Positions 21,001 to 24,000 of a DNA stretch of 30,864 nucleotides are shown one piece after another. The DNA is from Gemmatimonadota bacterium (lineage in GTDB: Bacteria; Gemmatimonadota; Gemmatimonadetes; Gemmatimonadales; GWC2-71-9). The stretch lies in NCBI GenBank assembly GCA_039586365.1, contig JBDHKN010000059.1, positions 1-30,864 of the forward strand. The letters are read 5' to 3'. Position numbers: made by a program. The first letter of the stretch is position 1. Every line of letters starts with the position of its first letter.

Positions 21001-24000
21001 CGGTTGGAAGGTGGCGGCGGTAACTGGTGCGTTTGCGGCAGTGATCGCTGTGATGGTGATCGTCATGCTCATCTCTCGCGAGGGCGGAGTGTCGCTCGAT
21101 CCCGAGCGTGTAGTAGTGGCAGTGTTCCGCAACGAGACGGGCGATGTGTCACTCGATTTGGTGGGTAGACTGGCCGGTCACTGGATCACGCAGGGCATTC
21201 AGCAGACGGGCACCGTGCAGGTCATGCCGTGGGAGACCGCGTTGCGATCGTGGCTCCACGTACAAGCAGAAGCCGACTCGGGTCGAGTGCTTGATCCTGT
21301 GCGCGCTTTGGCAGAGGAGACAGGTGCGGGGACCGTGATCTCGGGTGCGTATTACCTCGAGGGTGACACCATCCAGATCCAGGCTGAGGTGAACGATGCG
21401 ACGCAGGGGAGGCTCATCGGTTCGGTCGATCCGGTACGCGGGTCACGGGGCTACCCGAGCGAGCTTGTCGGACAGCTGCAGCAGCGTCTGATGAGTCTTC
21501 TGGCGATGAGGTATGACGAGCGACTGGCTGCGCCTTTTGATCTGGCTGGCAATCCTCCCACCTTCGAGGCATACCGAGTTTTCGACCAAGGTATGGAGAG
21601 GTTTCTCCGAAACGCACAACGAGATGCTCAGCCGTATTTCCGTCGCGCGATCGAGTTGGATTCGACTTATGCTGAGGCACTCCTGTTTCTTGCGGCCACG
21701 CACTGGAACCGAATGGAATATCCGCAGGCGGACACAGTGCTAAGATTGATGGACAGTATCGGTGAAAAGCTCTCGCCATACTACCGTTCATACGGGGAGG
21801 GCCTCCAGGCCGCCGTGGACGGCGATCTGGAGCGGGCACTGTCCGCTATCCGCCACGCTGCGGAAATGGCTCCGGGATCGAGGGCCTGGTATACCTACGG
21901 TGTCGTCTGCGGATGGACCAACCGGCCCCACGAGGCTGTCCGAGCGTTCCACGCCCTCGATCCGGAACGTGGGCCCATGCGAGGGTGGATTGGATACTGG
22001 TGGGAGTTGAGCAAAGTGCACCTCATGCTGGCTGAGTACGAGCAAGTCCATGAGGTGGCACAGCGAATCCGCCGCCTTCATCCTGATCAAGATGCGCGGG
22101 CTTTACTCTTGGAGGCCTTGGCTGCGGCCGGGCTGGGCCGTACGGAGGACCTCAGCAACGCATTGCAGCAGCTGATGAGTGAACCTGCGCCGGCCGGAGT
22201 GCGCACTGCGTTGCTTGACGCCACTCGAATTCTCCAGGCGATTGGGATGACGGACGCGGCACGAGATGTCGGTCGCCGAGCGGTTGCCTGGCTTGAGTCC
22301 AGACCACTCGACGAAATGGACACGGCTGCCCATCGATATGAGTACGGGTGGGCGTTGTACTTCACTGGGCGACATCGTGAAGCGCAAGAAATCTTCGATG
22401 GGCTCGTGGACGAGTATCGTGAATGGCCTTATGACCTGCGCCATCGAGGAGCGCGCGGATTCATTGCCGCCATCCGTGGTGATTCAGCACAAGCCCAGGA
22501 GGATTTGGAGTGGTTCGCAAACGTAGAGGGGCCCTATCTGCAGGGGGTTCACAAAGCCTATGGTGCCGTGGTCGCCGGTGCACTCGGCCAACGTGAAGCT
22601 GCGGTGATGCTGCTCCGGCAGGGGTACGCCGAGGGGACCGCGCACGTTTGGAACGACATGGTAGATCCGCAGTTTGAGCCGCTGCGCGGCTACGAGCCGT
22701 TTGAGGAATGGTTGCGGCCGAAGGGATAGGATTGACGACTGACGAAGTGAAATGCGCTGGAGGGATGACGGACGAGTCCGGGGCATTGAAGAGACAGCAA
22801 AACGAAGAGCCGAGGCACGTCGCGCGTCCTCAGCTCTTGTGACGTAGCGAACAGGCTACGCGGCATCGCAGACTCTGTCAACTTAGAACACTACATCCTA
22901 CCGTCAATGGCGCGGCGGTGCTGGCGGTGAGACTCGAACTCACAAGGGCTTTCGCCCAACGGTCTGCGATGCTGTCGCGTTTGCCAGTTTCGCCACGCCA
23001 GCACCTGAATCGGCGGCGAACCAAGGCAAGCTCTGACGCCAAGACGCGGGACATCGCACACGTTGCCGAGCCGCAGAGACATGCTACAGTTTGGGCTATC
23101 CCGGCGCGTAACCGTGTCATTGCATCGTGGCTCTGATTCGCGCGCCGCCAGTGCCTAGTGCCGACGGGTTCGCCCCTTGATGCACTTTGCACCCATTGGT
23201 ACGTCCGCGCCGTTAGCAGCGGGGCGTCCCCCGGTCTGCCTAAACGGCACCTCTACCATTGTCCCCGTGGCCGCGAATCGGCCTCGGCAGCCGCTGGTGA
23301 CCGGCTCCCATTCCGGCCTTTTTGACGTAAGTTGCTATTTTATAATGATTTACATCGACCGAACGACGTCTCGGATCGTCGATTTGAAGCTTCAAAACGC
23401 CGCTTGCCGACTTCGAATCTTCGATTCGGAGCTTCGAGACTCGCATTCGAAGATTCACGACCGCGATTCGAAGCTTCAGATCGTCGGTTCGGAGCTTCAA
23501 ATCGTCGATTCGAAGCTTTAGATCGTCGATTCGGAGCTTCGAATCCTCGATTCAGAGCTTTGAGACGTCGATTTCGAGCTTCAAGACATCGCTTCGAAGC
23601 TTCAAAATCATGCCAAAACGGCGGGAAGCGTCCGCCACCAAAGGTCCGCAACGGCCGAGCGGAACAGTTCCCAACACACCACAAACCTCAGAAAGAGGAT
23701 AGCACCATGCCGTTCAATATGTTTCCCACAGCAGGGCGATTTCCCATGCCGCGTAGCCATACATGGGAACCAACCTGCAGAACCGCCCGAAAACCCCGTC
23801 CTGACGCGGGAAAGCCCACTTCACCACCCACCCAATTCCGTTACCCATCCCTTACTCGTCAATCGTCAATCGTCACTCCCGCCCCTGCTTCAAACGCCTG
23901 CCGATTGAGGCTCAATAGCTTTTCAGGAATACGATCCTGCATGACACTGTCCCACACATCTGCGGGGATGTCGAGGAACTCCGCCAGCGTGCCCAACAAC

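Follow-up and report, generated by a model that had tools for sequence, protein, structure and literature searches.

The window analysed here, the whole stretch of 30,864 nucleotides of contig JBDHKN010000059.1 from a Gemmatimonadota bacterium, carries on its minus strand a class II tRNA gene (22917-23002) that combines a leucine identity set with the alanine anticodon CGC (22968-22966). The tRNA is real, and it is one part of a non-coding cassette of about 350 bases (22799-23147, minus strand), in which a regulated promoter (P1), a leader, the tRNA, a sigma-70 promoter (P2) and an RNA of about 77 nt that ends in a terminator follow one another. A preliminary description had confined the feature to 22917-23002 and called the tRNA an orphan; neither point holds, as the cassette reaches well past both ends of the gene and supplies it with two promoters, a leader and an antisense small RNA of its own.

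The tRNA and its family

The assignment of the tRNA is based on ARAGORN, Rfam, direct reading and cloverleaf covariation over 42 copies. ARAGORN gives the same tRNA-Ala(cgc) call at 22917-23002 of the minus strand that had been reported, and the Rfam tRNA score of 39.9 bits was reproduced in E-value mode; in gathering mode Rfam returned 0 matches over the whole window. Read directly, the gene has A73 (at 22919), A15:U48, G18G19 and A20a, a variable region of 15 nt with a 4-bp stem, and a 3' end of A73-C-C-G with no encoded CCA. The G3:U70 pair, described as missing, is indeed replaced by U3:A70, and the claim of a weakened anticodon stem is borne out by the mismatches A29.C41 and C31.A39, together with A32/G38. 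A normal tRNA-Ala(CGC) with G3:U70 was likewise found elsewhere in the genome (C125:147965-148040), and the leucine tRNAs, said to be the nearest kin of the gene in this genome, have the next-best scores with the family profile (40.4, 39.3 and 33.0 bits; a Ser tRNA of the same genome scores 25.4 bits). Positions 22893-23078 are identical (0 differences) to a contig from a public DNA run, the sample of which is not necessarily independent.

The family was studied as a set of 96 unique tRNA copies, which are kin and so not independent. This set supports the earlier view that tRNAs with a Leu body and anticodons for other amino acids form a conserved family: there is no Leu anticodon in any of the 96, which sets them apart from canonical tRNA-Leu, and the anticodons are those of Ala (47), Val (34), Glu (6), Asp (4), Thr (3) and Gly (2). 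The previous list of Ala, Val, Gly, Asp and Thr was thus correct as far as it went and incomplete for Glu. The anticodons match the most used codons, and they change at least 42 times on a 94-row tree that is itself weakly supported. The bacterial leucine determinants are A73, U8:A14, A15:U48, G18G19, A20a, U54:A58 and a long variable region (PMC9976931). The window copy has A73, A15:U48, G18G19, A20a, U54:A58 and the long variable region, and in the family the counts are 93/96 for A73, 95/96 for U8:A14, 90/96 for A15:U48, 95/96 for G18G19 with A20a, 96/96 for U54:A58 (U55 in 91) and 89/96 for a variable region of 15 nt.

The G3:U70 pair of tRNA-Ala occurs in 0/96 copies. The ValRS determinants A35, C36 and A73 are present in the 34 copies with Val anticodons, which may be charged by ValRS; the further tRNA-Val elements G3-C70 and U4-A69 are missing from all 96. 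A37 is invariant (96/96), the anticodon loop has 7 nt, the 5-bp anticodon stem is intact in 80/96, and CCA is never encoded. U33, previously given as invariant, is found in 73/96 copies and C33 in the other 23; C33 and the stem mismatches of 16/96 copies point to reduced decoding. The normal tRNA-Ala(CGC) speaks against a reassignment of GCG to leucine, and so do the GCG codons of ssb and dprA, a small sample of 8 codons in two genes, of which 7 align with Ala and 0 with Leu.

Promoter P1, leader and trailer

P1 consists of an upstream element of two tandem boxes (GC-N8-G[G/A]T) 20-21 bp apart, which are putative activator sites (23109-23147, minus strand), and of the -10 hexamer TAGCAT (23081-23086, minus strand). 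The motif was derived from 94 cassettes, and the window copy scores 24.2. A conserved TAnnnT-G lies 21-22 nt past the proximal box in 86/94 cassettes when placed by best fit in the alignment, and the start site would be near 23074. Since a single-box motif was unspecific (184 matches), only the composite model was used, with 29 matches in the genome versus 6 in the reversed genome. Scores of at least 15 were found upstream of ssb in 28/29 family genomes (controls 0/58), upstream of yraN (yraN-recA) in 20/25 (controls 0/50) and upstream of comEA in 14/29 (controls 0/58). In genome G000 a P1-type promoter also stands before a pilin gene and before four protein toxin-antitoxin-like pairs; before dprA there was none in 22 relatives, and the score in G000 is 13.6. 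An SOS reading of P1 was rejected, as nothing was detected upstream of lexA (best score 6.2). We infer that P1 is linked to a DNA-uptake/recombination-type regulon. Separately, a P1-type match scoring 19.8 lies 1.7 kb upstream of comEC, inside another gene.

The leader of about 72 nt (23003-23074, minus strand), defined from the family consensus, is an imperfect antisense to the anticodon and D arms of the tRNA. Its 5' GCGGC (23074-23070) pairs with the trailer GCCGC (22912-22916, minus strand), recognized by folding and covariation; pairing in this helix reaches 98%, and 3 of the 5 base pairs show compensatory changes. The last GGU of the leader lengthens the acceptor stem across A73-C74-C75. 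The predicted probability of the anticodon stem (median of 77) is 0.00 in the nascent RNA with the leader versus 0.23 with a shuffled leader, and 0.24 versus 0.79 once the whole tRNA is included; in 81/94 the leader pairing prefers its own arm. Sequence and covariation together establish this precursor architecture. We abandoned the idea of a T-box-like leader because its codon-like triplet follows the anticodon only loosely. Neither the leader nor the small RNA is represented by a family in Rfam.

Promoter P2, the small RNA and its cognate pairing

P2 (22880-22907, minus strand) has TTGACG (22907-22902) and TAAGTT (22885-22880) separated by a 16-nt spacer. It passes a strict sigma-70-type pattern, which stands 5-10 nt ahead of the antisense segment in 53/92 cassettes (shuffles: mean 0.22, maximum 2); a generic promoter scanner does not list it (8/12 matches, under the cut-off). 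The anti-tRNA small RNA of about 77 nt (22799-22876, minus strand) was delimited from the inverted repeat, family statistics, covariation and a CM match (22798-22875, 53 bits). Its 5' tail (22873-22863) is the exact complement of tRNA positions 30-40, an 11-nt perfect inverted repeat that displays the codon GCG at 22869-22867. A hairpin (22861-22842) that covaries across the family and a terminator stem (22838-22805) come next; the terminator is present in 88/92 cassettes. A first RNAalifold structure (model R1) missed hairpin 1 and was set aside. With its two stem mismatches, A32/G38, short P2 spacer and weak U tail, the window copy looks weakened.

A cognate antisense RNA gene accompanies each of the 96 family tRNAs, downstream in 95 cases and upstream, under its own promoter, in one. 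The exact anticodon complement is found downstream in 94/96, one more having a G.U, and whenever the anticodon changes among family copies the antisense RNA changes with it. Core matches of at least 10/11 characterize 83% of cognate and 2.5% of non-cognate pairs, the antisense being most perfect at tRNA positions 33-38. The median predicted binding in 86 cassettes is −21.8 kcal/mol for cognate pairs, −6.4 when the anticodon is another and −9.0 when the anticodon is the same and the arm another. As an example, the small RNA of the window is predicted to bind its own tRNA with −19.9 kcal/mol versus −7.0 for the host tRNA-Ala(CGC). Insulation is incomplete, as for 10/64 cross pairs between co-resident copies the predicted binding comes within 5 kcal/mol of the cognate value. 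Covariation across the family demonstrates the pairing of each small RNA with its own tRNA as a feature of the sequences. In T-box riboswitches, too, an RNA offers a codon to the anticodon of a tRNA; in our case Rfam gives no T-box match, there is no conserved downstream gene, and the codon-bearing RNA matches the tRNA of its own cassette, not a host tRNA.

Distribution and relatives

The cassettes are patchy (strict pattern in 23/301 genomes of the phylum), non-syntenic (145 flanking ORFs fall in 115 clusters) and multi-copy (reaching about ten per genome, with as many as 13 CM matches at E≤0.01). The window copy lies inside an 11-kb stretch that is missing at the same site in 3 congeners. 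No synthetase domain was found among 113 flanking representatives, and no transferase, synthetase or recombinase recurs among the genes beside the cassettes. A contig end interrupts the LeuRS gene of G000. In 10 genomes, 48 small-RNA loci were read. A full tRNA precedes the small RNA in 29 of them, and in 15 no tRNA does; the rest are 2 extra copies behind a full cassette, 1 with a tRNA broken by an insert and 1 truncated by the contig. The small RNAs lacking a tRNA partner keep intact promoters. A lone small RNA also occurs in a single-contig genome (G035), with no matching tRNA by pattern; in fragmented bins, assembly losses or an integration event at the 3' end of the tRNA may account for the missing partner. 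The contigs of four DNA runs contain no strand-changing or cassette-skipping joint, which is not evidence of absence because contigs drop rare variants.

Related modules occur in Planctomycetota and on viral contigs, with the codon in a kissing loop. In those of the Planctomycetota type the codon sits in the terminator loop in 11/180 loci versus a control mean of 0.9 (maximum 4). Arg (GCG) and His (GUG) anticodons are also represented among the related modules. The family-specific pattern has 0 matches in the viral contigs; a looser one retrieves 47 viral contigs, mostly with other tRNAs. Leu-body tRNAs with odd anticodons outside the family have an antisense within 220 nt in only 10/70 cases (a non-C36 scan that includes 25 UGG tRNAs), the viral ones a downstream antisense in 3/13, and for L301, a Gemmatimonadota-labelled tRNA outside the family, none was detected. 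Modules of this kind thus have a scattered occurrence across several lineages that live in soil and sediment.

Interpretation

These results are probably best explained by an all-RNA toxin-antitoxin system in which the putative toxin is a missense tRNA. P1 would make a precursor in which the leader, and in the full transcript also the 3' antisense segment, are predicted to block folding of the tRNA. Trimming, RNase P cleavage and CCA addition would free the mature tRNA. To judge from its identity elements and from other missense tRNAs, the host LeuRS, blind to the anticodon, would charge it with leucine. Insertion of this leucine at frequently used GNN codons (in this copy GCG) would poison the proteome. 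P2 would constitutively make the small RNA, whose 5' tail would pair with the anticodon loop and arm of its partner and neutralize it. Upon induction of P1, or upon decay of the short RNA after cassette loss or a block of transcription, the stable tRNA would act and growth would stop; divergence of the anticodon arms would insulate co-resident copies.

In favor of such a module we count the tRNA/antisense pairing in 96/96 with its cognate preference in predicted binding, the repeated anticodon changes, the small RNA's own promoter and terminator, the lone small RNAs, the patchy, non-syntenic, multi-copy distribution, the absence of the 11-kb stretch from congeners, the P1-type promoters ahead of toxin-antitoxin-like pairs in G000 and the codon in the terminator loop of Planctomycetota-type modules. 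Counting against it are the 81/96 Ala or Val anticodons, as replacement of these residues by Leu is among the milder errors, the ValRS determinants of the Val copies, the C33 and stem mismatches that point to reduced decoding, the weakened state of the window copy, the many Leu-body tRNAs with odd anticodons outside the family that have no detectable antisense, the incomplete insulation, and dprA without a P1-type promoter. We infer that the putative RNA toxin would inhibit growth when unopposed from its identity set, from the asymmetry of the lone small RNAs and from precedent: missense allo-tRNAs (PMC5389517) and tRNAProX (PMC10404621) are reported to be toxic in E. coli.

An unlikely alternative is a beneficial, regulated mistranslation switch, in which a tolerated tRNA is induced with DNA uptake or repair genes, producing mild Ala/Val-to-Leu variation in the proteome, with a small RNA that fixes the threshold and ends the pulse. 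The same predominance of Ala and Val anticodons, the frequent C33 and a P1 that belongs to a host regulon are consistent with this view, as is the increased antibiotic tolerance described for tRNAProX in E. coli (PMC10404621); a stable locus would however be expected of a gene that serves its host, not a patchy, non-syntenic, multi-copy module with diverging arms that leaves lone small RNAs and broken tRNAs behind. Still less probable is a role outside decoding, with the small RNA controlling how much of the tRNA is available; the tRNA might for instance lure anticodon nucleases, tie up LeuRS or EF-Tu, or donate leucyl groups. The 23 copies with C33, the CCA that is never encoded, and the report that some allo-tRNAs are charged yet unused in translation (PMC5389517) would suit it, but the 7-nt loop, the universal A37, the mostly intact stem and the anticodons for the most used codons all fit decoding, the antisense is most perfect around the anticodon, and no transferase or synthetase recurs nearby.

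Two further alternatives appear very improbable. In one the polarity is reversed, the small RNA being a toxin that jams host tRNAs and the tRNA look-alike a sponge: CreT is an RNA toxin that sequesters tRNA, and the window tRNA loop has 6 nt in common with the host tRNA-Ala(CGC), but the predicted binding to the latter is far weaker than to the partner, and persistence alone with intact promoters is unexpected of a toxin. The other, equally remote, is a feature of the DNA alone, without RNA function, in which an invertible segment, or an inverted repeat that corrects itself, surrounds a decayed tRNA; in most copies the two arms are indeed inverted repeats of each other, with about 90 bp and a promoter separating them, and template switching could help to keep them matched, but the order is swapped in the tandem pair L059, where the antisense gene is upstream, the Planctomycetota codon sits in a terminator loop, RNA helices covary, pairing mismatches lean to G.U-compatible changes (45 vs 24), and no recombinase recurs nearby.

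Relation to known systems

The proposed all-RNA module is closest to type VIII systems, in which toxin and antitoxin are both RNA: in SdsR/RyeA the antitoxin binds the toxin as an antisense RNA and so masks it (PMC8610362), and CreTA is named as a type VIII system (PMC11951105). At the level of sequence the cassette likewise has a small-RNA gene, with its own predicted promoter and terminator, complementary to the putative toxin RNA. It differs in that a tRNA would be the toxin, through mistranslation, in that there is no CRISPR component, and in that the antitoxin is a separate gene on the same strand that matches the anticodon arm, not the opposite strand of the same locus. Type I loci typically have an inactive primary transcript and multiple insulated copies. 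In tisB/istR-1 (type I) the promoters are separate and only the toxin gene is under a stress regulator (PMC11951105), and toxTA of Haemophilus influenzae is competence-regulated (PMC6957337); our cassettes would share this arrangement, with no evident peptide toxin and with a tRNA anticodon arm, not an mRNA, as the antisense target.

The tRNAProX of Streptomyces and Kitasatospora (tRNAProA/N/T) are dual-identity tRNAs with switching anticodons and non-U33 loops that mistranslate (PMC10404621), features that the present family resembles in its own dual identity, switching anticodons and non-U33 loops. It differs in its Leu body, in the absence of an adjoining dedicated synthetase such as ProRSx, in G1 (96/96) where tRNAProX has C1:G72, and in its cognate antisense RNA; the term 'antisense' is absent from the main text of the tRNAProX paper (PMC10404621). 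Allo-tRNAs have a long variable arm and an identity independent of their diverse anticodons, as here, are lethal when expressed and often lie near toxin-antitoxin genes (PMC5389517, PMC7609411), and no antisense partner is described in the main texts of these papers. Unlike their 8/4 or 9/3 folds, ours is canonical (7-bp acceptor stem, 5-bp T stem), and its identity is Leu, not Ser or Ala. No prior description of the module was found in the literature searched, mostly outside subscription papers.

Implications

We give about even weight to the broader proposition of a cross-phylum class of RNA-only addiction or growth-arrest modules with a mis-reading tRNA as toxin and a co-evolving anti-tRNA RNA (5' tail or kissing loop) as antitoxin, fired in Gemmatimonadales by the DNA-uptake regulon. 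A module fired in this way could spread by transformation and arrest cells that turn competent or lose it. A conserved promoter type, probably of DNA-uptake genes, is also brought to light in Gemmatimonadales. If our reading is true, this class of module is previously undescribed, and some genes annotated as tRNA-Ala or tRNA-Val in these phyla are mis-annotated. The two RNAs, with no protein, would offer dozens of natural, largely orthogonal pairs as potential switchable missense tools. Bacteria would possess small RNAs whose specific task is to silence a single tRNA via its anticodon, one could explain why dual-identity tRNAs such as allo-tRNAs and tRNAProX, lethal upon cloning, are retained in genomes, and the adaptor of the genetic code could itself be a selfish toxin.

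Window tRNA and its host genome

The preliminary description had reported a tRNA with a leucine body and an alanine anticodon, and the 86-nt gene at 22917-23002 (minus strand) indeed has a class II cloverleaf, its anticodon being CGC, and carries U3:A70 and A73; the two anticodon-stem mismatches, and the normal tRNA-Ala(CGC) elsewhere in the genome, were also correctly noted. The tRNA itself was thus borne out, while the inverted copy of the anticodon arm 3' of it had been overlooked. CCA is not encoded in the gene, and a contig of a public DNA run is identical to window 22893-23078. 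The window copy, one of 3/96 family copies with two anticodon-stem mismatches, is complete, yet may be attenuated. The assembly (60% GC, 86% complete) carries four tRNA-Leu genes; several standard tRNAs are missing from it, which fits its completeness, and leuS (contig C122, 48028-48615) is interrupted by the contig end after ~196 residues. GCG codons stand opposite Ala in homologues in 7 of 8 cases; judged from these alignments, the code is therefore not reassigned at GCG.

Leucine identity elements and anticodons of the tRNA family

In 76 of 201 genomes of the bacterial family a DNA search gave matches at E<=0.001 (compared genomes G014 and G198 counted); scoring covered only four candidates per genome, and ordinary tRNAs account for many of the weak matches. 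Scanning 185,579 species genomes with a pattern brought up 103 stretches, 99 titled Gemmatimonadota and the remaining four on short bin contigs. Together with 30 loci of the DNA search these yielded 122 profile matches and, leaving out duplicates and four copies with an unparsable D loop, 96 unique family copies. As had been proposed, the anticodons are non-Leu throughout (Ala 47, Val 34, Glu 6, Asp 4, Thr 3, Gly 2, Leu 0; n = 96); in the anticodon loop all 96 copies have A37, 93 have C36 and 73 have U33. The bacterial tRNA-Leu determinants set out in PMC9976931 are each kept in 90-96 of the 96, and G3:U70 in none. In 42 copies the cloverleaf and flanking helices are 98.6% paired, and 17 of the 32 pairs show compensatory changes. 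With a strict pattern, family-type tRNAs were recognized in 23/301 phylum genomes, including 16/125 within the bacterial family; the element is therefore accessory.

The cognate antisense small RNA

A complement of the anticodon lies downstream of the tRNA, exact in 94 of the 96 copies and with one G.U in 1 more; in the remaining case, the tandem pair of locus L059, the segment matching each tRNA lies upstream, behind its own promoter. Antisense matches of at least 10/11 are found in 83% of cognate versus 2.5% of non-cognate pairs, and the match is best at loop positions 33-38 and stops sharply past position 40. In a set of 92 copies (the family minus four with lower antisense scores), a sigma-70-type promoter (P2) lies 5-10 nt before the antisense end in 53 under a strict rule, against a mean of 0.22 in shuffles; a terminator-like hairpin comes next in 88, and the RNA so predicted has a median length of 77 nt (in the window copy, 22799-22876 on the minus strand). 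Both of its hairpins show covariation, and at tRNA/small-RNA mismatches G.U-compatible changes are favoured 45 to 24, kin not being independent. On a weakly supported tree of 94 rows, with the anticodon arm left out, at least 42 changes of anticodon are counted, and the small RNA changes along with them. Over 86 cassettes, the small RNA is predicted to bind its partner at -21.8 kcal/mol, a different arm bearing the same anticodon at -9.0 and one with a different anticodon at -6.4; for the window small RNA the predicted values are -19.9 kcal/mol with its partner and -7.0 with host tRNA-Ala(CGC).

Predicted folding of the precursor

The conserved leader, ~72-80 nt long, is an imperfect antisense of the tRNA 5' half. 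Folding predictions on 77 cassettes give the anticodon stem a median probability of 0.79 for the mature tRNA, 0.00 for leader plus 5' half (0.23 with a shuffled leader), 0.24 for leader plus whole tRNA (0.79 shuffled) and 0.00 for the full transcript to the terminator. A helix joins the 5' end of the leader to the trailer, and 3 of its 5 pairs show compensatory changes; given this pairing and the predicted loss of the anticodon stem, the primary transcript looks self-inhibited, as type I toxin mRNAs are.

Genomic context and orphan small RNAs

ORFs flanking cassettes, 145 in number, form 115 clusters, one holding 20, and no recurring synthetase, transferase or recombinase appears among 113 representatives. 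In three congeners window ~12910-23875 (11 kb) is absent at this site, its bounding genes being adjacent; in a fourth, another and shorter interval takes its place. The stretch holds a molybdopterin oxidoreductase operon, fpg, a BTAD/TPR gene, the cassette and a tandem repeat. This repeat (23340-23602; 21 nt, ~12 units, read as heptads, e.g. FEASNRR) neither matches Pfam nor occurs elsewhere in the genome, and its ORF (23332-24231, plus strand) is otherwise unconvincing. In DNA run X2, contig record 11 (684 nt) matches window 22987-23214 with 3 differences, reaching from P1 (the upstream promoter) over the leader into the tRNA (first 16 nt); its remaining 456 nt are unlike the window, and it possibly stems from a strain with another tRNA and small-RNA allele.

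Ten genomes, of which five were picked for high copy number, hold 2-13 matches each to a covariance model built on the small RNA. The 48 loci read comprise 29 with a full tRNA upstream, 15 with no tRNA, several of which retain a tRNA 3' stub and P2, 2 extra copies behind a cassette, 1 insert-broken tRNA and 1 truncated locus. At locus L624 a palindromic insert of ~45 nt splits the T arm of the tRNA, with the small RNA intact. The window's genome has a second anti-tRNA small-RNA gene on contig C39 (L600, 13218-13292, plus strand), which presents a GUG codon; it lacks a neighbouring tRNA or leader, the assembly holds no tRNA that it would target, and it is a candidate orphan antitoxin. The single-contig genome G035 likewise has an orphan. 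The tRNA was never found without its partner and the small RNA often stands alone, as would be expected of a toxin and its antitoxin.

Related modules outside the family

Two acceptor-independent scans provide samples: among the matches listed, downstream antisense accompanies 69/105 intact C36 tRNAs, 10/70 non-C36 tRNAs and 3/13 viral tRNAs, and antisense-bearing modules occur in Planctomycetota, one Zixiibacteriota bin and viral contigs, besides modules of Gemmatimonadota that bear Arg or His anticodons. In the Planctomycetota type (L203, L221, L252, L253, L272, L282, L294, L297, L331; one viral) the small RNA uses its 5' tail to pair with the variable arm. The anticodon-loop complement lies in the terminator loop at 11/180 loci (control mean 0.9, maximum 4), two of them probably by chance, and the codon displayed there is predicted to kiss the anticodon loop. 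DNA inversion cannot account for this architecture.

Leu-body tRNAs with Pro anticodon UGG (25 intact among the matches listed, in Alphaproteobacteria, Planctomycetota, Acidobacteriota and others; e.g. L383, L388, L399, L400, L402, L410, L415) nearly all have no antisense close by and are possibly a separate dual-identity family; many Leu-body tRNAs outside the family, these included, have no partner and may be a different phenomenon. At loci L190 (Azospirillum cavernae) and L235, Leu-body tRNAs bear the Ala anticodon UGC, and their upstream complement is no more than partial; the cultured strain, with two in tandem, is a possible test organism.

Interpretation and the putative P1 regulon

The existence of the cassette, its set of Leu identity elements, the cognate antisense gene and the common promoter type are established by sequence and covariation; precursor inhibition and the binding energies are predictions. 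The cassette is probably a toxin-antitoxin module, with the tRNA as toxin and the small RNA as antitoxin: upon induction the precursor would be processed and the tRNA leucylated, mistranslation and toxicity would ensue, and the small RNA would provide rescue. That mistranslation is instead tolerated and regulated seems rather unlikely, a non-decoding role of the tRNA more so, and the other explanations, even jointly, are slightly less probable still. Precedents for toxicity are found in PMC5389517 (allo-tRNAs) and PMC10404621 (tRNAProX); the word 'antisense' is absent from the main texts of both, and from reviews PMC11415595 and PMC7609411, supplements, which could bear on this, excluded. In its putative mode of action the cassette resembles the type VIII toxin-antitoxin systems described in PMC8610362, of which it is a candidate member.

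P1 consists of two boxes spaced 20-21 bp and a -10 hexamer; a model trained on cassettes alone gives 29 matches in the window's genome versus 6 in the reversed control. Pfam names among 20 top matches are ssb, a prepilin, a ComEA-type protein, yraN-recA, two PIN toxins, MqsA/DUF4258, Gp49/HTH, a restriction-modification gene and a transposase. Scores of at least 15 occur before ssb in 28/29 relatives (30 loci, one too short), before yraN in 20/25 and before comEA in 14/29 (one locus too short), and in none of the control windows of these comparisons; the counts include the window's genome and one ssb and one yraN row from G014. No such promoter was found before dprA (0/22) or lexA. The tandem boxes are kept family-wide before ssb, yraN-recA and comEA (contigs C62, C96 and C125 of the window's genome; L154-L183, L509-L563), and several toxin-antitoxin-like, restriction and transposase genes use this promoter type as well. 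We infer that P1 marks a DNA-uptake/recombination regulon, probably one of competence or DNA uptake with a putative activator; competence-regulated toxin-antitoxin pairs have precedents in PMC11951105 and PMC6957337.
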